A DNA stretch of 44,392 nt, counting the filler, from an uncultured Methanosarcinales archaeon (GTDB lineage Archaea; Nanobdellota; Nanobdellia; Woesearchaeales; JACPBV01), in NCBI GenBank assembly GCA_964492935.1. It is 12 parts of 12 records of this genome, joined end to end, with 100 filler letters (N's around TTAATTAATTAA, not from the genome) between each part and the next. Parts side by side here need not be neighbours in the genome. Positions count along the whole stretch, not along the records: positions 1 to 6,366 come from CAZBLF010000042.1; 11 more parts are not named here. One strand, given 5' to 3'. Positions 1 to 24,236 of the stretch are shown in pieces. The notes below the pieces were generated by a model that was given only the letters and a program-made list of their open reading frames with translations, had not been told where the DNA came from and searched no databases. The position numbers were made by a program, and so were the translations under genes. Numbering within the stretch: position 1 is the stretch's first letter; every line of letters starts with the position of its first letter.

Positions 1-163
1 CGATGTTAAATACAATAAAATTTCCATTTCTTAGACGATAAAAACGGAGGAGTTCAGTGCTACGCACATATAGTCTCCTTCGGAGAAATTTATTTTTAAT
101 TGGGGGAGTTCTTAACTAATTTGGGAGTTCCTAAAATCTATGGAGGGGGCAAGAAACAATTAA

Positions 164-172
164 ATTTATTAA
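164..172 (+). promoter_or_regulatory. Archaeal TATA box for ORF 197-943
   Basis: TTTATTAAC about 25-33 nt upstream of ATG 197; no SD, so probably leaderless. Confidence 0.45.
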
Positions 173-196
173 CATTAGAAGAATATCTATTAAAAA

Positions 197-943
197 ATGG
201 TACTAAACTGGTTTTTCAAAGATGAATTTGAACAGTTTTATAGCCGAGTTGAGAGACTACAAAAATTTCTCAGAATCGTTGACAAAGAACTACTTATTGA
301 CCATTTTGTAGAATTACGCAGACACTTCAGACAAATAAAAAGAATCCTGCCAAAACTAAATCGTCTATACCAAGAAGAACTTAAAACTGTTGAACATATT
401 CCAGAATCGGGCTACAAAGAAAAACTCAAAAAATTCTCCGTTGATTTAGAGAAAGAACTGAGTGACTTAGAAAACTGGGTAAATAATGCGCTTGCTCTAG
501 TAGCGGAAATCCTCAAAATAAGAGTATTGACACAAGTACAAGAACAAAAGCAGAAACTTAAAACAATAATCAATCATATTACCAATATCTTAATCAAAGC
601 ACAACGAGATGCTTTTGAGTTAGTCAAATTAGAGATAGCTTGGAAAAAATCAATCAAGAAAGCACATAAAAAGCCAATCACAAAAATATCAGTCGTTGGA
701 AAACTCAATAACGGTTGGCGTTTGAGTGATATTCAAAGTGTCGTTATTGATCTGGGTGGAGTTGTTGAGCCAAATCCTGGAGGCACACATCCATACAAAA
801 TTGTATTTTCCGGACATCGTTCAATTCCTTTAGCAGAATCAACTCCGCCATTTATACTCGTGAGAGAAATCAGTTCAGCAACTGGAACGGATAATAAAAT
901 TCTGATAGTGAGTTTTTCTCAGGGAGAATTAGTCGCTGCTTAA
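197..943 (+). CDS. Hypothetical protein: N-terminal coiled coil plus C-terminal HicA-like domain
   Basis: 248-aa ORF; heptad-rich N-terminus; C-terminal GGVVEPNPGGTHPYKIVFSGHRSIPL resembles the HicA G-S/T-H beta-hairpin pattern (by eye). Confidence 0.6.
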   Translation: MVLNWFFKDEFEQFYSRVERLQKFLRIVDKELLIDHFVELRRHFRQIKRILPKLNRLYQEELKTVEHIPESGYKEKLKKFSVDLEKELSDLENWVNNALALVAEILKIRVLTQVQEQKQKLKTIINHITNILIKAQRDAFELVKLEIAWKKSIKKAHKKPITKISVVGKLNNGWRLSDIQSVVIDLGGVVEPNPGGTHPYKIVFSGHRSIPLAESTPPFILVREISSATGTDNKILIVSFSQGELVAA

Positions 944-1303
944 ATATTTGCTTCTGAAAGCCTCATATTCTCTCCTTTTCCTTGCTGATACAAATGGCAA
1001 TAACGGGCCCATATCCTGTAAATTGCCCGCTTCATCACATAAAAGATAAACCTTGTCTTCTCCAGCTTTCATTCTTTCTAAATCCTGAGCATAAGTGTCT
1101 TGGTTAAAAGTAATAAGAACTTCATTTCCTTGCCCAGCAATGGTTCGAAATGCTTCTTTAACAACTTCAACTTCCAGCTGAGAAAGCGAACTTAAATTAA
1201 CTTCAGAATCTCCTATTGCTGTCTGTAATTGACTTCTCAAATATCGTAAGCTTTGATGTTGTTCATTATAAAATTTTAGTTTATCTTTTGGAATTTCTTT
1301 CAT
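929..1303 (-). CDS. Hypothetical protein, convergent with and overlapping the 3' end of ORF 197-943
   Basis: 124-aa ORF; TTTTTAAATA TATA-like box on the minus strand at 1329-1338. Confidence 0.65.
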   Translation of the reverse strand: MKEIPKDKLKFYNEQHQSLRYLRSQLQTAIGDSEVNLSSLSQLEVEVVKEAFRTIAGQGNEVLITFNQDTYAQDLERMKAGEDKVYLLCDEAGNLQDMGPLLPFVSARKRREYEAFRSKYLSSD

Positions 1304-1669
1304 GTTATATTGAATAGAAAATCATACCTATTTAAAAAGCTTTGGTTCATTTACTACCAAACAATAGTATTTCTGTTTCTCGCCTCCCTTAAATTCATGT
1401 TCTCAAAGTATGCTGACGCTCAAAAGAAAGAACGGAACTCCCCTTAATGTACTAACTAAAAGAGCCTTCGGCTAGGATAAAACAAACTCCCCCCTGCTAC
1501 TTGTTCTTGATGTAACGCTTCGCTTTCTAGATAGAACTGAACTCCCCCGGTGCTTCGCACATATACACTCCCTGCGGTCGAATTAATGGGAAATGGAAAT
1601 TTTACTTCTTCGCTCCACTTCGTTCCGCTCGACCACGTTGCACTCTCCCTACGCTTCGCTTCGGTCGGG

Positions 1670-1752
1670 GTATTTAACAGCGATTATCCGGAAAATCCCT
1701 TGCAGGAATTTTCCCAAATTGGCTACGCCAACTTCGCATAGTTGCGATGTAA
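1670..1752 (+). other. attC-like recombination site with branched terminal structure
   Basis: R''-like ATTTAAC (1672-1678); GCGATTAT pairs with ATAGTTGC (two G:T); inner hairpins GGAAAATCCCT-TGC-AGGAATTTTCC (1690-1714) and TTGGC-TAC-GCCAA (1719-1731); ends GATG|TAA. Confidence 0.65.
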
Positions 1753-2289
1753 AGAGACCATCGAATCACCGTGTGCACCTAAGACCATGCCCGTAACCGA
1801 ACTAGGCGAAACCTTTAATTCAGCTGCAATGAAATTGCGTAAGCGAGCACTATCCAAAACACCAGCCATCCCCACAACCTTTTCCTTAGGCAAACCAGAC
1901 TTCTTCAAAAACAGGTACGTCATCACATCTAAGGGATTAGTAACAATAATACAGATAGCGGAAGGAGCATGTGACTTCACAGATGCTGCAATCGAAGACA
2001 TAATGGAACTATTCTTCGCAAGCAAATCCTCCCGAGACATACCAGGTTTTCTAGCAAGTCCAGCAGTAATCACGATGAGTTCGCATCCAGCAAGACTACT
2101 ATAATCAGTACTGCCCGTTATCGTAGTATCAAACGGAAAAAGAGGACTACAACACATCATATCCAATGCCTTACCCACAACAGCATCATCGATATCAATC
2201 ATCACGATTGAAGAAACAATATTCTTTGAAGCGAGAATAAAAGCCGCAGTAGCACCTACCTGCCCTGCACCAACGAAACCAACTTTCAT
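1750..2289 (-). pseudogene. mdh: Malate dehydrogenase (LDH-like MDH), 3'-truncated after about 180 aa
   Basis: GAGQVG Rossmann motif, GLARKPGMSREDLL, NPLD, GMAGVLDSAR, GAHGDSMV. Homology stops at Leu codon 1752-1750, immediately at the attC-like site; normal length is about 310 aa. Confidence 0.85.
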
Positions 2290-2355
2290 GATCGCAGGCA
2301 AGATACAAAATATTTAAATCTATGGATTTTTATATAAAATGAAGATCCTCAGTAC

Positions 2356-2619
2356 ATGTCTAAATGCCCTGAAGAAAAAATATATAGCTTATCAGAAGCA
2401 AGGAAGATTGCCAATATCTCAAAGAGACTTGCAGAAACCATAGATCATGTAGTGAGAAGGGGATATCCGCTGCATACTATACCCAGATTGCTGGACCAAA
2501 TGACCGAATACCCCGATGTCTTTAGACCACAAATCATACCGTATCTTCATAGATTACAAGAAAACGGTAGAAAAACGTATAACCTAGAAAACTTTCTAGG
2601 TAGCACGCACCTAGATTAA
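2356..2619 (+). CDS. Hypothetical protein
   Basis: 87-aa ORF with TTTATATAA box about 25 nt upstream; stop abuts the stop of the convergent gene. Confidence 0.55.
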   Translation: MSKCPEEKIYSLSEARKIANISKRLAETIDHVVRRGYPLHTIPRLLDQMTEYPDVFRPQIIPYLHRLQENGRKTYNLENFLGSTHLD

Positions 2620-2826
2620 CTACCAATCAAGTCCTTCTAAGTCTGCTACAACCGCATCCAAATCATCAGCAAGCTCTTCGGCTAAAACGGCATTTTCCTC
2701 AGTGTCAGAACCTACCTGATTAACAAGAGCATCGCCACTTCCACTATCTGTAGCAGGTTGAGTTTCTTCAGGAACTGCACATCCGACAATAAATAAAAGC
2801 ACCAATACTGCTAGGATTCTTTTCAT
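2620..2826 (-). CDS. Small acidic lipoprotein
   Basis: MKRILAVLVLLFIVGC lipobox-type signal; overlaps the stop of the upstream gene (ATGA). Confidence 0.7.
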   Translation of the reverse strand: MKRILAVLVLLFIVGCAVPEETQPATDSGSGDALVNQVGSDTEENAVLAEELADDLDAVVADLEGLDW

Positions 2827-4310
2827 TCTGCATCCTCCTCCGATTCTTCGGAATCTTCCTCTTCATCCTCAACCAGTTCCTCATCCTCAGCACCCTCTAA
2901 GGTAGCATCGTGCTCTCGCAACCCATGGGAAATCTCCACCAACACGGAATGCGCCTCCTTAAGCTCAGACTGTGACTGCTTGTGCAACTCCTTCGCTTTT
3001 CGAATCATCTCACTCAAAGCATCTCGTTCCTCTGCAGCTACAGTAGATCCCCGTTTCGAAGCAACTTCATCCAATAACGCAACCGATTGCTCATGCAATG
3101 ATTTAGCTTCGGCAACATGCCCACTAAACGTTTCAACTAAAGTATCCAAATCCTCGACCGTTACTTCGGATTCCTCAATCCGTGCAAGAACCTTCTCCAA
3201 TTTGACCTCAAGCTGACGAGCTCGTACAATCGTTGCTTTTGATTCTGCAACAACCACACGCGCCGCACCTGCCTTTGCAACATGCGAAATTCTTTTCCAC
3301 ACCGAAGCAATTTCTTTGGCAGCCGCTCGCAATTCTTCTTTCGTAGTAGCCGCATCTGCAAGCACTAGCGCCTTAGTAACAGACCCAGCCGCATCCGTAA
3401 GTTTTGCGACTAACTCAGCAGCACGCTCCTCTTCAATTAGGTCATTCTCCTCAATCTTGGAAAGGAGCTTCTCGATATGATTCAATATACGCTCACCAGA
3501 CTTTGCAACATGCTCCTTAGCCTTGGCTAGAATCTCCTCTTCAAGTGCATCACAATCCTCAGTACATTCAGCAAGTTTCTTCTTAACATCCTCAAACACC
3601 TTTCCACGATCCTCGCCCTCAGTTTTCAAAGACTCATACCTGACTTTAGCCTCCTCATAGCGTTTCCTAGCCTGTTCTAGTTTATCAGCCGCGACATCAC
3701 GTTTCTTGACCAGGTCGTCAGCTCTCATAATCTTCAAACGAGAAATCTTCTCCTTTACTGCAGCAGCATCCTCTGATGCAAGAATTCGCTTAGCGTGTCC
3801 ACGATCAAGCTGAGCTATCTTCCGAAGCTCATCGGTAGTAAACTCATCCTTTGTAAACGCAAATGCCCGACGAGCTCTTCCTGTATCAGAGATGTGCTCA
3901 TCATCCATACGAGGAGAACATTTCTTTCTACAATCTTCCTTTTCAACTCCACTCTCAACACATTTCTCTAAACAAGTATCAACTCTAGCTGCAATAGTAA
4001 CCGGAACCGGTCTAGCCTCTCGAGTAACATGCGTATCAATATCACATTTTTTAGCACAATCCTCTTTCCCAACACCAGAATCTAAACATCTATCCATACA
4101 ACTCCGTTCACTAATAAGAACAGGCTTAGGAACCGACCTTGCTTCACGTGTAACCTCATCAGAACCAGAATCATCCTTGACATCATCAGAACTAGTAGTT
4201 CCATCACCCTCCTTTGTAGCATCAGAATCTTTACTCTCATCAGCAACCACAAAAGAAACAGAAGAAACCACAAACAACATAACCATCAATAACACGAAAA
4301 CTTTTTTCAT
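2823..4310 (-). CDS. Secreted coiled-coil protein with two Cys-rich repeats
   Basis: Signal peptide; CxxxC-x9-CxxxC repeat twice, each preceded by VTREARxVP; long helical region; acidic tail; GAGGTGA SD; homologous start at 44240. Confidence 0.85.
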   Translation of the reverse strand: MKKVFVLLMVMLFVVSSVSFVVADESKDSDATKEGDGTTSSDDVKDDSGSDEVTREARSVPKPVLISERSCMDRCLDSGVGKEDCAKKCDIDTHVTREARPVPVTIAARVDTCLEKCVESGVEKEDCRKKCSPRMDDEHISDTGRARRAFAFTKDEFTTDELRKIAQLDRGHAKRILASEDAAAVKEKISRLKIMRADDLVKKRDVAADKLEQARKRYEEAKVRYESLKTEGEDRGKVFEDVKKKLAECTEDCDALEEEILAKAKEHVAKSGERILNHIEKLLSKIEENDLIEEERAAELVAKLTDAAGSVTKALVLADAATTKEELRAAAKEIASVWKRISHVAKAGAARVVVAESKATIVRARQLEVKLEKVLARIEESEVTVEDLDTLVETFSGHVAEAKSLHEQSVALLDEVASKRGSTVAAEERDALSEMIRKAKELHKQSQSELKEAHSVLVEISHGLREHDATLEGAEDEELVEDEEEDSEESEEDAE

Positions 4311-4383
4311 TCAAATCACCTCAAAGTTGATATCTAAGGTAACCAGTATTCTCTATTTAAAAACTTTTGTAACTTCTACCGAA

Positions 4384-4734
4384 TTAAAAGCTACCAAAAA
4401 GAGCTCGCAACCGAGTAACGATCTGTACAGGAGCATTCATAATAAGTTCTTCAGTAAACCGAATCACCCGAATCCCATCCCAACCACAACTAATATCCTT
4501 AAAATGATCCTTCCACGCATTCCGATGCCAATACCTTCCATCAGCTTCTAAAGCAATCTTTCGAGAAGGAAAATAAAAGTCAAAGATGCGAACAGAACCA
4601 TTACTCAACAGTTTCTTGTATTCACAATAAAAATCCTTACCCTCAACAAACCCCAACGAAAGCAAAAAAGACAACATCTTCCTTTCCAATAGAGTACGCT
4701 TCCCCAACCGAGAACTAAAACTACCGTATCTCAA
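4384..4734 (-). CDS. DUF559 / Vsr-like (very-short-patch-type) endonuclease
   Basis: DFYFPSRKIALEADGRYWH and GIRVIRF motifs; close homologue at 43834-44178. Confidence 0.8.
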   Translation of the reverse strand: MRYGSFSSRLGKRTLLERKMLSFLLSLGFVEGKDFYCEYKKLLSNGSVRIFDFYFPSRKIALEADGRYWHRNAWKDHFKDISCGWDGIRVIRFTEELIMNAPVQIVTRLRALFGSF

Positions 4735-4925
4735 CCTTTACTCCACCACCTACCTCATACGCAACACAACCTCTTCTATTAAACATTCATGAAACACCTC
4801 AATTTCCAAAAAAATGATGAAACCCATGCATAATCCCTTTCTCTCGGTGCGTTGCAGCCGCATCCACCAACGGAAACGAATATGAGAGCCTCACACAAGG
4901 AAAGTTAAAAATTGAGGTGAAAACC

Positions 4926-5153
4926 ATGAATAAAACAAAAATAGTGAATTTAGTCGAGAGAGATTTTACGACTCTCGCAAACCTTGAGCGCAGCATTCAG
5001 TTTGCGATCAACTCGAGGAAAGGTAGGCAATACCAATACAAGGTAATGCATGCTGCCTTTAAGCGCACGTGTGATATTCTTCTGAAGAGAAGAAAATACA
5101 TTGCGAAACAGCTCGGTCGCAGACTAGAGCTGATAAAAGACCCTTCAGAGTAA
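4926..5153 (+). CDS. Small basic hypothetical protein (75 aa)
   Basis: GAGGTGA SD at 4914-4920 before ATG 4926; K/R-rich; convergent with the recombinase. Confidence 0.6.
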   Translation: MNKTKIVNLVERDFTTLANLERSIQFAINSRKGRQYQYKVMHAAFKRTCDILLKRRKYIAKQLGRRLELIKDPSE

Positions 5154-5165
5154 GGGTCTTTTTTA
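5133..5165. terminator. Bidirectional hairpin between convergent genes
   Basis: AAAAGACCCTT-CAGAGT-AAGGGTCTTTT with A/T tracts on both sides. Confidence 0.6.
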
Positions 5166-6041
5166 TTCCCCCAGCAGAGCAGGAATACCTTTCGTATGAA
5201 AATCATGCGGCAACCGAGCATAATCCAAAGTCGTCTTGCGATCAGCATGCCCCATCAATTTCTGGATAGTATCGACATCAACACCTTTCTGCATGAGATG
5301 CGTAACACAACTTGCACGCATCATATGAGGATACACGTGCATATGAATACCGGCTTTCTTAGCTGCAGTATCAACAAGTGCTTGCGCAGTTCTTCTTGTA
5401 AGGTGTCCACCAAAGCTGTTCTCAAACAAATAGACAGATGAGCGTTTTCGGGAAGCCAAATAAGACCTCATATCCGAATACAATCGAGCAGGCAGCGGCA
5501 CATACCTATCTTTATTCCCCTTTCCACGATAAATAAACAACAATCGAGCAACATCATGGATATGACCTACCTTAATCTTAACACATTCACCAACCCGAAT
5601 CCCCGTTTCATACAACAATCGAATCAACAATCGATGTTTCTCCGATCGAGTACGATTAATCATCATCCGAATCTCCTCAGTGGCCAACACCCGAGGCAAA
5701 CTCCTAGGAATCTTCGCCCTCTTAACACCAACAAACAATTTCTTCCCCATGAAACCGCTAAAATAAGATTTCAATGCACTCACTGCAAGATTAACAGTAC
5801 GCTCCTTTTTGTGCCGATCCAATAGATGAAGAAGATACCTCCTAATATCCGCAGAAGTAACAAATTTAGGCTGCTTCTTTACAAAATCCATAAATTTACC
5901 CACAGTCCAAAGATAAGAATCAATAGTATTTCTACTAAACCCCTGTAAACGCAAGTCATCCACAAAACCCGCAAACCTCTCCTTCAACCTATCCTTTTGT
6001 CTAATTCCCTTTTCTCGTTTTACCTGATGAAATGTGTTCAT
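5163..6041 (-). CDS. Tyrosine recombinase, XerA/XerD-like (292 aa), copy 1
   Basis: N-terminal SAM-like domain (LRLQGFSRNTIDSY); catalytic R (GIRVGE), K (GKGNK), HxxR (HMMR), GH and Y (TTLDY). Start moved to ATG 6041 using the GAGGTGA SD and conservation with copy 2. No IntI-type insertion. Confidence 0.92.
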   Translation of the reverse strand: MNTFHQVKREKGIRQKDRLKERFAGFVDDLRLQGFSRNTIDSYLWTVGKFMDFVKKQPKFVTSADIRRYLLHLLDRHKKERTVNLAVSALKSYFSGFMGKKLFVGVKRAKIPRSLPRVLATEEIRMMINRTRSEKHRLLIRLLYETGIRVGECVKIKVGHIHDVARLLFIYRGKGNKDRYVPLPARLYSDMRSYLASRKRSSVYLFENSFGGHLTRRTAQALVDTAAKKAGIHMHVYPHMMRASCVTHLMQKGVDVDTIQKLMGHADRKTTLDYARLPHDFHTKGIPALLGE

Positions 6042-6077
6042 TCCAATCACCTCATACATATATGACGAAGAACTCAG

Positions 6078-6116
6078 CTTATATACCCTGCGCCCGCATC
6101 TGGCAAGTGGCAAGTG
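6078..6116 (-). promoter_or_regulatory. Recombinase promoter: TATA box plus tandem CACTTGCCACTTGCCA motif
   Basis: GGGTATATAAG and CACTTGCCACTTGCCA are conserved in copy 2 (42902-42912 and 42874-42889). Confidence 0.55.
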
Positions 6117-6134
6117 CAACATGATTTTGCCGCC

Positions 6135-6238
6135 TTAACACCTTTCAAGCAAGAATTTAGCCGTCTCAGACTGGACACTGCCAAATGGCAAGTGCCCCTG
6201 AAACACCAAAACAGCGCTTAAAAGATGTTAAATACAAT
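6135..6238 (+). other. Recombinase-proximal foldable attachment site (attI-equivalent), copy 1
   Basis: TTAACACCTTTCAAGC (6135-6150) pairs 14/16 with GCTTAAAAGATGTTAA (6216-6231); central hairpin GGACACTGCCA-AA-TGGCAAGTGCCC; GTTAAAT at 6227-6233. Confidence 0.65.
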
Positions 6239-6312
6239 TTTTGAAAATGCCTAAGAATAGAAAGGGGGCTAGACTTTCCACAATTTATATAAAACCTAAA
6301 GTTTTGAATATT

Positions 6313-6349
6313 AATGAAGCTCCCAGCCGCCCCAAGGGGCGGGGTATCT
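6313..6349. mobile_element. GC-rich hairpin resembling an IS200/IS605-family or palindromic-element end, at a contig break
   Basis: AATGAAGCTCCCAG-CCGCCCC-AA-GGGGCGG-GGTATC; the contig ends 17 nt later. Confidence 0.35.
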
Positions 6350-6366
6350 AGTTAAAGCTTGCAAGC

Positions 6367-6466: not shown

Positions 6467-8352
6467 TTTTCGATGTTTACATCTTTTAGAAATGCTTTGT
6501 TTGATCTGCCTATGTAGCTGAAATTAAAGTAGAAGTATAGGTTTTCATCTCCTGAGCGTAGACGTTCTACGCTGAGGAAGGTAGGAGATTGGTATTGTGG
6601 AAGGGGCTTAGCAATGAATGAGAAGTTTCCGGAGAAGCAGGTTTCAATGGGGATTCTTAATTGTTCTGCAGATCTTCTGCCGGCTAAGTCTTGAGATACA
6701 AATAAGAGATTTGAAGTGACTGCGTTTTTAAGTCCTGCAGCATTTACCTGTGATGATTGGGGTTCGGACGTTGATTGTTGGCGTATTCTAAATGCTCCTT
6801 GGAAGATGTTTGTAATATCTACATCTTCGAACTCGAAAAGGCCATCTGCATCGGCAATCGTTTCCTCATCCGCATGCGTTGCGCATTTTTCTACTCCTAG
6901 CACGGCGAAATCGCATTTTGCTCTTAAGTCTGAGTCGCCTAATGTTTCTAGTCTTGAGGATAGGCCAGCAATTTCGAAGGTTCGGTCGAATACGTCGTTG
7001 AAAGGTGTTCGTTGGACGTACAGAAAGACTTTTGCTCCGGGTTCGGTCTTTCCGCGAATGGTTACGGCATCGGCAAAGTTTTCAAAGATTTGCTGGCCGC
7101 TTCGTGGAGAGATGATTTCTATTTCGGGTGGTGTGGTGTCGAGTAAAATTTCAAATTGTTCGCTGATTGCGTTACCACCGGGGTCGGTGGCGGTAACACG
7201 CAGCGTGTAAAATTGTTCTTCCTCTCCTAGTTGTACGGGAACGTCGAATTCTCCATTGACGACTACTGATGTGGAAATGGTTCCTACTCCGTCGAGGAAA
7301 TTAATGGATTCTGCTTCAGGGAAGTCTTTTTTGCCGGCAGGTAGGGTGGTTGCTGATAATGCTGCTGAGGAGGAGCCGATATTACCTTTATCGTCTACGG
7401 CGAAAATAGTATATGTGTAGGTGCGCTCTGAATTAACGCCGATGTCTTTGAAGGTGGTTACTTGATCATCGTCAAAGAAGATGAAGGGTTGGCCATCTCG
7501 TGAAAGGACATATCGATTGAAATCTTCATCTGTTGATTGGTTCCACGTTAGTTCGATAACATTTGCTTCGATGTCTGTGATGTTAAAGGCTACTACGGGA
7601 GCAGGAGGAACGTCATCTTCCTCTGTTTCCTCTACGGTGATTTCTAGGGTTACGGGTTCGGAAACCACTCCAATGACATGATACTCTTGTTCTGGAGCAA
7701 AGAGCGGGATGTCGGTGAGATTGAGCTCGGGAGGGATGGTGTCTACGGCGATTGAGAAGATTTTTTCGGTCTGTCTATTGTCTTTTCTTGCAATAATCTT
7801 TATGGAGTGATTTCCATCTGCTAATTCTACGTTCGAGAAGGCGAATTCTCCTTGCTGACCAGATATTCTCTCTTCTTTGAGGAAATTGTCTACTAAGAGT
7901 TGTAATTCGGTTAGTGGTGAGGTGGTACCGGGAATACTTATTGTGTTGCCTTGGTTGAAGGTAGTGGGCACGGTAGCGTTGAGGATGAATGCAGGTTGGG
8001 CGAGCGTGGTGAAGGTGAATGATGCGCCCCCATTGTTGTCTTCTACGGTTTGAGTAAGATTATTAGATGCTACCTTAAAGAGATAGGTTGTGGCTGGATC
8101 TAGGTTGTTGAGGGTGATTTCTTTATTGTTATCGAAATTGAGGGCTTGGGTTTGTGTTTGGTCTAATGCTGAAGTTCCAAAGGTTACGGTGGCGTCTGCG
8201 GACTGATCTACGATCCAGGTGATGGTTGCGGATGTGTCAGAGACTTGTGCTGCCTGGACTGAGTTTATTGACAATGCATCTACGAATGCAATGGGCATTA
8301 GGATAATTAGTTCGATGAGCAGGATTGCTAGGATTGATGTGGTTTTGTTCAT
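6467..8352 (-). CDS. Large secreted protein with fibronectin-III/Ig-like domains (3' partial)
   Basis: Signal peptide; FN3 motifs (SATITW...LDPATTYLFKV; ELTW...YTYTIFAVD); DTTPPEIEIISP Ig-like linkers. Confidence 0.85.
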
Positions 8353-23559: not shown

Positions 23560-23664
23560 AAATGGGCCTGAAGATAAAGGAAATGAAACATTCCCTAACC
23601 TTCAGTCCGAAATGGGCCTGAAGATAAAGGAAATGAAACATTCCCTAACCTTCAGTCCGAAATG
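23560..23664. repeat. 50-bp tandem repeat starting with the tRNA-Arg 3' end
   Basis: AAATGGGCCTGAAGATAAAGGAAATGAAACATTCCCTAACCTTCAGTCCG twice plus the start of a third, then a scaffold gap. Confidence 0.75.
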
Positions 23665-23764
23665 NNNNNNNNNNNNNNNNNNNNNNNNNNNNNNNNNNNN
23701 NNNNNNNNNNNNNNNNNNNNNNNNNNNNNNNNNNNNNNNNNNNNNNNNNNNNNNNNNNNNNNNN

Positions 23765-24060
23765 GGCCTGAAGGGATTCCCACCTAAGGGTTTCACCCTA
23801 TAGGTACCCGTGCACTAGATGTAGCATTTCGCTTTGCTCAACGCTACTAGGACAATTGAGAAGAGAAAAATGGGCCTGAAGGGATTCCCACCTAAGGGTT
23901 TCACCCTATAGGTACCCGTGCANNNNNNNNNNNNNNNNNNNNNNNNNNNNNNNNNNNNNNNNNNNNNNNNNNNNNNNNNNNNNNNNNNNNNNNNNNNNNN
24001 NNNNNNNNNNNNNNNNNNNNNNTTTGCTCAACGCTACTAGGACAATTGAGAAGAGAAAAA
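23765..24060. repeat. 108-bp tandem repeat containing 17 nt of the tRNA-Arg 3' end and hairpins (gap-interrupted)
   Basis: GGCCTGAAGGGATTC at 23765, 23873 and in the tRNA; unit tail repeated at 24023-24060. Confidence 0.7.
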
Positions 24061-24155
24061 TGGGCCTGAAGGGATTCGAACCCTCGGTCTACAGCTTAGA
24101 AGGCTCTGGCGGAACATAATGTTCTGTCGCCCTATCCAGGCTAGGCTACAGGCCC
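24061..24155 (-). tRNA. tRNA-Arg(TCT) with a 20-nt intron at a non-canonical position (24106-24125)
   Basis: GGGCCTG/CAGGCCC acceptor stem; TTCGAAT T-loop; ACAGC-CTTCTAA-GCTGT anticodon arm after removing AGAACATTATGTTCCGCCAG. Confidence 0.9.
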
Positions 24156-24236
24156 ATGATGTTGAAAGTCGTGAGTGTTTATATAAATCTTTTCTCAATG
24201 GAAACGGTTATAAAGAGAGTTGTGACTTTCTAGGTT

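Follow-up and report, generated by a model that had tools for sequence, protein, structure and literature searches.

Xer-family recombinases act on mobile DNA in IMEX of the CTX-phage type, where attP is folded and single-stranded, and in the pdif modules of Acinetobacter plasmids, which Xer sites delimit; dif itself, on which XerA acts in archaeal chromosome-dimer resolution, is a single 28-bp site. We know of no R/L-box attC-like architecture, and no ordered array beside the recombinase gene, in these bacterial IMEX and pdif elements. Integrons also occur in archaea, and the available text of the report on them describes six archaeal IntIs that have the IntI additional domain (PMC9668308). 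Bacterial integrases insert cassettes at non-att genomic sites as well (attG, 5′-GWT-3′), according to the available text of a second report (10.1101/2022.09.11.507474). Our literature searches of titles and abstracts gave no link of XerA, DPANN and cassettes, nor of Woesearchaeota and integrons, and a search on XerA, archaea and integron found no arrays of the kind described below in any title or abstract.

The locus analysed here comes from a Woesearchaeota-type (DPANN) MAG of 1,151,202 bases in 57 contigs (completeness 84.8%, contamination 0.13%); its repeats recur in public relatives under the labels Woesearchaeota and Nanoarchaeota. The window, that is, the whole stretch of 44,392 nucleotides under analysis, consists of 16 small contigs of this MAG (C42 and 15 further ones), each separated from the next by 44 N, a 12-letter linker and another 44 N, and the long 'repeats' in it that are made of N runs are artefacts of contig joining. 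C42 occupies positions 1–6366 and carries a junction between an attC-like site and a malate dehydrogenase gene (mdh). The first-pass annotation had spoken of the order cassette, 5′ mdh, recombinase, att site, cassette as that of 'this contig'; the order holds for 1–6366, but the rest of the window is other contigs, N-joined.

Like integrons, the locus and its relatives have a recombinase gene beside a docking site, a cassette array in one orientation and a folded cassette-end site with inverse core boxes, an L″/L′ stem and a variable-length centre, with boundaries at G/TT (the slash marks the crossover throughout). Unlike in integrons, however, the recombinase has no IntI-specific domain and is XerA-like by score; cassettes, even those of different families, have in common some 130 nt past the crossover and several hairpin modules ahead of the site; and there are compact sites of ~30 nt as well as some multi-gene cassettes of up to ~10 kb. 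Archaeal XerA of P. abyssi is the best structural-sequence relative of the C42 recombinase, but the C42-type enzyme goes with hairpin sites and an array of cassettes and not with one dif. The junction itself resembles attC × attG insertion, in which a folded attC-type partner is joined to ordinary genomic sequence by exchange at the usual cleavage point after G and genes can be interrupted; however, that process, as far as the available text of the report goes, was followed in experiments in E. coli with IntI1, IntI2 and IntI3, while here the event is natural and fixed, in an archaeon with a Xer-type recombinase, and the post-crossover bases are TA, not WT (10.1101/2022.09.11.507474). The break, G/TA, thus has the W of the GWT rule but not the T at +2, in a rule derived from bacterial IntI1–3.

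The features of C42, together with those of the second contig that the comparison needs (C57), are as follows, in window coordinates.

1–133, plus: right half of an upstream site (CGATG/TTAAATAC; G5/T6) and conserved cassette leader, 75–100% identical in other families.
197–943, plus: cassette ORF of 248 aa (ORF call, profile searches), no family match.
929–1303, minus: cassette ORF of 124 aa (ORF call, profile searches), no family match.
1376–1671, plus: hairpin-rich non-coding modules before the site, common to many relatives by identity, no Rfam match.
1672–1749, plus: attC-like site, aligning over its full length to the sites of 13 relatives, up to GATGT.
1749–1750, no strand: junction of the final G of the site with a T, the earliest base that can be assigned to mdh, bridged by independent contigs, with an ambiguity of ~2 nt.
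1750–2289, minus: 5′ 180 codons of an LDH-like malate dehydrogenase gene, mdh (ORF, Pfam, NCBIfam, homologues).
2356–2619, plus: 87-aa ORF between mdh and the 495-aa gene (ORF call).
2620–2826, minus: 68-aa ORF with a lipoprotein-like N-terminus as judged by eye (ORF call).
2823–4310, minus: 495-aa secreted or coiled-coil-type protein, syntenic with C38 of the same MAG and with the same-genus genome G001.
4384–4734, minus: DUF559/Vsr-like small endonuclease-type protein (profile match), conserved beside the recombinase.
5163–6041, minus: XerA-like tyrosine recombinase, 292 aa from a likely ATG at 6041 (Pfam, NCBIfam, structure alignments).
6079–6197, plus: promoter-like repeat with a TATA-like box and GGCAAGTG repeats, pointing to the docking site.
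6224–6235, plus: attI-like docking site GATG/TTAAATAC (G6227/T6228), where similarity to C57 and G001 ends.
6228–6366, plus: first cassette after the docking site, start only (contig end).
42712–44392, plus: C57, with the resident docking site, recombinase and DUF559 gene, 80–82% identical in nucleotides to C42.

The mdh frame runs on the minus strand from the ATG at 2289 to ...GAHGDSMVSL and then through eight foreign codons (HRNYAKLA) to a stop at 1723–1725, retaining 180 of about 306 codons in a product of 188 aa. On the plus strand the junction reads GCGATG/TAAAGAGACC, with G1749 followed by T1750, and both coordinates and sequence agree with the end of mdh homology at ...HGDSMVSL that the first-pass annotation had described. 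Of the two domains expected of an LDH-like malate dehydrogenase only Ldh_1_N is complete (Pfam positions 1–141 of 141), Ldh_1_C being matched over just 3–37 of 174; the NCBIfam match to PRK06223 spans 4–185 of 313. All close homologues have 306–313 aa, and none is of the naturally ~190-aa kind that the first-pass annotation had named as a refuting case. C38 of the same MAG encodes a full-length protein of 306 aa that is 85% identical to the C42 mdh, G001 has an open frame of 313 aa (82%), and P0121, from another assembly, is an intact mdh of 306 aa that is 91.7% identical to the C42 type. Since Ldh_1_C is partial and the close homologues are of full length, the C42 mdh is truncated and not naturally short, and its truncation at the crossover window of the attC-like site is confirmed. 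Nucleotide homology between C42 and C38 begins at 1752–1756, and the break can be placed only to ~2 nt because the Leu codon 1750–1752 is too diverged; mdh starts within the 7-nt GATGTTA window that holds all cassette boundaries of the site family. The search for intact alleles and for the missing 3′ half that had been proposed with the original claim had a divided outcome. The nearest intact allele is P0121, with no intact C42-type mdh found above its 91.7% identity, and the displaced 3′ half was not found in the 84.8% complete MAG, in which the PF02866 profile finds only C38 and the C42 stub. None of the loose ends listed (24, from 4 metagenomes) falls at 1750, where it would mark an intact allele.

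The junction is real. Under a rule of 31 letters for bridging, Logan contigs from two of the four studies compared with C42 bridge 1749/1750, namely X4 (1707–3310) and X5 (1707–2697), with 43 site letters on the left and 0 differences; the X2 contig (1721–2309) also shows 0 differences but with 29 left letters stays under the rule, and X3 has no spanning contig among the records listed. L037, an independent JGI metagenome contig, is identical to C42 1051–5399 at 4349 of 4349 positions, so 100% identical across the junction, and also confirms the linkage through the repeat at 1664–1736. It was the one match among longer metagenome contigs and lies inside C42; a search of viral contigs gave none. 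The exact 188-aa product is encoded in six contigs from four sources (NCBI, JGI, Logan and ENA), one of them 8056 nt long, and words of C42 occur in marine and vent metagenomes, in 20 runs that belong to 17 studies. Depth, a coarse measure, is similar on both sides of the junction in all four runs compared. Both checks suggested at the outset, for misassembly across 1749/1750 and for a change in coverage, therefore speak for a true junction, which on the favoured reading has become fixed in the chromosome of a marine population with a wide distribution. The 'recent activity' that the first-pass annotation had read into it may be real but is not demonstrated: the same junction recurs with 0 differences in several independent metagenomes, and no intact allele above 91.7% was found.

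The site that adjoins mdh is built of R″ ATTTAAC (1672–1678), L″ (1680–1690), inner hairpins (1691–1730), L′ (1735–1745) and GATG (1746–1749). It is without the distal half of R′ (TTA...), so that R′ reads GTAAAGA and is broken after GT; the relatives go on ...GATG/TTA, while C42 turns into mdh after GATGT. The motif GATGTTAAATAC is found at 2–13 and 6224–6235 and the inverse GTATTTAAC at 1670–1678. In the family as a whole, R″ (RYYYAAC), an A and an 11-nt L″ are followed by one to three small hairpins of variable length, then by AACTT, an L′ that complements L″, GAT and finally G/TTA, so that core boxes of the type ATTTAAC, GTTTAAC and similar on one side face GTTAAAT and similar on the other, as in attC. 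In relatives, G is followed by TTA in all 15 displayed copies, 12 of which have the full GATGTTA.

The unbiased figure for pairing comes from 23 sites chosen by the R′ pattern alone (one of these, and of the displayed copies, was contributed by genome G005, on which no claim rests). An upstream complement to the 10 nt before GATG, with at most two mismatches, is present in 12 of the 23 sites versus 57 of 1150 shuffles, and follows AAC(A) in 11 of those 12. In the alignment of 13 relatives and C42, where the sites were pre-selected for complementarity, 92.0% of the cells pair versus 75.4% in shuffles (none of 500 as high as the real alignment) and 27.5–48.3% in slid controls, and 10 of 11 L-stem pairs are changed on both sides. 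The stem is thus compensated around a variable centre, as in attC, in sites of 83–162 nt; single bulges occur in some sites, e.g. GGGCTTAAAGGG versus CCCTTAAGCCC. The C42 stem has eight Watson-Crick pairs, two G-T pairs and one mismatch, and in the complement test C42 shows 3/10 mismatches, with AACA context. Folded alone, the C42 site forms three small hairpins (z −1.5 and −2.1; z +0.6 for the 466-nt region), a result of little weight, given that the site lacks the distal half of R′. That the site is a true attC-like element, as originally claimed, is supported by the inverse core boxes RYYYAAC/GTTRRRY, the compensated stem, the variable centre and the same-orientation arrays by the recombinase. 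The non-coding segments 1–133 and 1376–1731 recur at 70–100% identity in about half of a set of 60 relatives (some 30), which span many families of the order, several of them with arrays. C42 starts 4 nt before the crossover G of its upstream site, and 1–133 is multi-copy in metagenomes (depth 11–22 versus 4–8). An Rfam search of 1–6366 gave no match at the gathering threshold nor at E up to 1, and the cassette ORFs of 248 and 124 aa had no Pfam, NCBIfam or PADLOC match.

The recombinase has the Pfam Phage_integrase and SAM-like N-domains. Its best NCBIfam model is archaeal XerA, NF040815, with 214.2 bits just under the cut-off of 220; the integron integrase model TIGR02249 gives 145.8 bits versus a cut-off of 265, and NF011946 76.8 versus 435. 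Residues 14–278 of 292 align to P. abyssi XerA (PDB 4a8e; E 2.3e-41), and this alignment contains R, HxxR, H and Y, which we take to be the catalytic residues. Against V. cholerae IntIA (2a3v), residues 212 and 213 of the query are contiguous, and IntI 200–240 are without counterpart. Since the IntI-specific domain of ~41 residues is absent and the best model is XerA, the enzyme is not an IntI; assignment as IntI is ruled out also by the score below the TIGR02249 cut-off, and the parallel with integron integrases that the first-pass annotation drew has to be corrected: the enzyme is a XerA-like recombinase. The system is, on sequence criteria, integron-like and not a canonical integron. Relatives have one to three Xer-like paralogues each; the search of the MAG turned up no others than those on C42 and C57.

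The complete arrangement is best seen in relatives. On the closed Woesearchaeota chromosome G061, a recombinase that is 47% identical lies on the minus strand with a docking site ...GATG/TTAAATAC ~200 nt upstream, and the 29-kb array holds at least seven attC-like sites, every one of them on the plus strand, that delimit cassettes of 0.3 to ~10 kb. In G001 an intact mdh follows housekeeping genes, and after it come a 547-aa protein, DUF559, the recombinase, the docking site and three to four sites. A recombinase with adjacent docking site and one-orientation array, i.e. an integron-type platform, is therefore present in G061 and in contig C6 of G001; C42 and C57 carry the docking site, and both contigs end soon after it. 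Similarity of C42 to C57 and G001 stops at 6232–6242, and in run X5 a 2.3-kb contig is identical to 3946–6230 and then carries a different cassette, with the leader GTTTCAATAAAATTTCC, which shows that cassettes next to the docking site have been exchanged from one population to another. Since similarity ends, and X5 switches, at the docking site, the cassette boundaries lie inside GATGTTA.

The MAG has two copies of this platform. The end of C38, a contig outside the window that holds the intact mdh, overlaps the start of reverse-complemented C57 by 32 identical bases, and on this overlap the two contigs form a resident locus (intact mdh, large protein, DUF559, recombinase, docking site) organised like that of G001. 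Contig-end overlaps in the MAG comprise three of 55 nt and this one, and none involve C42. C42 is the second copy, at 65–82% nucleotide identity, and the only inter-contig duplication in the MAG. Compared with C38 and C57, its mdh shows dS 1.11 and dN/dS 0.12 and its recombinase dS 0.91 and dN/dS 0.10; C42, C38 and G001 are about equidistant. Since dS is about 1 (0.9–1.1 over the two genes), recent duplication within this genome, which the proposed circle or duplication might have implied, is excluded. The mdh fragment has been under purifying selection (dN/dS 0.12–0.16), with no clear signal of relaxation on the C42 branch (0.14 versus 0.09 and 0.20 on the others), and C42 has seven derived residue changes versus six in its intact sister P0121, three of the C42 changes striking otherwise invariant residues near the break. 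Its branch is not clearly relaxed, and the C42 mdh therefore remained functional while its own lineage diverged, and was cut late. C42 may be the orthologous locus of a sister lineage that was mis-binned, or it may be a foreign platform copy residing in this genome.

How did the junction arise? Site-specific exchange of the folded site with a non-canonical site in mdh is the most likely cause, and we regard it as probable. The XerA-like recombinase would run an integron-like system with a docking site GATG/TTA... upstream of its gene, an array after the docking site, and cassettes that each end R″-L″-variable hairpins-L′-GATG/TTA. In the lineage of C42 one attC-like site would have recombined with an mdh site and not with another att site, and since the exchange would have taken place at the normal crossover, the site would be left intact to ...GATG with mdh codon 180 directly after it. 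In the simplest topology a circle of at least two cassettes would have been inserted into mdh, moving the 3′ half to the far side. The left end of C42, CGATG/TTAAATAC, matches the att consensus and not mdh, and because this end is another att-type site, either a circle with two or more cassettes or some other route would be needed. Both the role of the C42 recombinase in making the junction and the topology of the event we infer. The functional site may be larger than assumed, since the ~130 nt conserved between cassettes after the crossover are atypical of integrons. If site-specific exchange was the cause, C42 is a natural, fixed example of off-target cassette insertion in an archaeon whose Xer-type recombinase is without the integron-specific domain. 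The scar would mark the strand-exchange point of the cassette system, within GATG/TTA, and show that this system can act on ordinary genes; it also supplies a substrate pair, in which the hairpin site is matched with mdh sequence from the closest allele that is intact, and bears on the relationship between integron and Xer recombination.

The second route offered by the first-pass annotation, in which the array or docking site recombined with an mdh site beyond the recombinase to give a circle or duplication with 5′ mdh, neighbours, recombinase and docking site, the unit now persisting as an element or captured in another array, possibly after sister-lineage transfer, seems unlikely to us. It predicts the order seen in C42 (cassette, site, 5′ mdh, recombinase, docking site, cassette); the segment common to C42 and the resident locus has the junction (1752) and the docking site (6242) as its exact limits; an intact C38 and C57 locus and C42 stand together in a MAG with only this inter-contig duplication and 0.13% contamination; and purifying selection over nearly all of the mdh divergence fits a foreign origin followed by recent truncation. 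However, the same homology limits are expected of an orthologous locus in a sister species, because the arrays differ past the docking site anyway (G001 versus C42 stops at 6232), and with dS about 1 a recent in-genome duplication cannot be the source. No end-to-start joint was found in four runs and no overlap of the C42 ends, although these are weak tests and the one for the circle joint is uninformative because both ends are multi-copy repeats; the sequence past the docking site departs from the contig start after ACAAT, and a short repeat-rich contig is easily mis-binned. It is quite unlikely, too, that the 4.5-kb block 1750–6227, which has a crossover point at either end and takes in 5′ mdh, its neighbours, the recombinase and the docking site's left half, itself moved like a giant cassette, excised from a sister-lineage chromosome via the off-target mdh site and then taken up into the array of a platform-bearing genome; if true, the cassette system would be able to mobilise its own recombinase.

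Illegitimate, non-site-specific deletion or rearrangement that ended by chance at the site core would suit the fact that the partners have only G (or GT) in common, but the break would then have hit, within a non-coding region of ~450 nt, the 7-nt window that is the sole place of all cassette boundaries, and left the remainder of the site intact, which makes this explanation highly unlikely. A chimeric contig, or a naturally short mdh, is barely credible. The segment 1664–1736 is indeed a multi-copy repeat where unitigs break, but unitigs from 1707 carry 43 nt of the 3′ side of the site into mdh in two independent runs, the independent assembly is 100% identical across cassette, site and mdh, the partners have no k-mer in common at the junction, and the homologues close to this mdh are all 306–313 aa long.

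Several further observations concern the sites and their surroundings. Compact sites of ~30 nt (loci L019 and L028) have R″/R′ around a short palindrome, e.g. AGGAATTCC or AAGGATCC, and no variable centre. The last 80 bases of contig C1, outside the window, hold a compact attC-like site (..CTAACAGCGATCGCGATGTTAAGC..), and C43 starts with TTTTCGATGTTTAC (window 6467–6490); contig breaks of the MAG and its relatives often fall at attC-like sites. The pre-site hairpins show compensatory changes by eye (GTGC..GCAC versus GTCC..GGAC). At L021 (G009:C87, ~32478) and L023 (G034:C19, ~35910) the leader G/TTAAAT... is preceded by sequence that is not attC-like, the G034:C19 copy adjoining housekeeping genes. 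Each could be the end of an array, a docking site that has no recombinase near it, or a further off-target junction. In an ENA assembly, the mdh P0002 is of the C42 type over residues 1–50 and of the C38 type over the remainder, with the switch at the only 23-nt word common to both mdh genes; it is probably an assembly chimera, and shows just that both mdh types co-occur in one sample. The recombinase gene of G001 (C6:6316–7191) has one in-frame TAG, which a pseudogene, a sequencing error or a recoded stop could explain.

In the promoter-like repeat upstream of the C42 recombinase, the TATA-like box is followed by CTGGCAAGTGGCAAGTG, with a second GGCAAGTG ~90 nt on; copies at 72–96% identity occur on seven other contigs of the MAG and in relatives, and the repeat at 6079–6197 could serve as a promoter or operator used in common, or else represent a small RNA. 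Another multi-copy repeat lies at 6313–6347. Elsewhere in the window, at 23560–24156, tandem repeats of 50–60 nt and partial tRNA copies lie beside a 97-nt tRNA call (ARAGORN anticodon tta; Rfam tRNA 49.6 bits).
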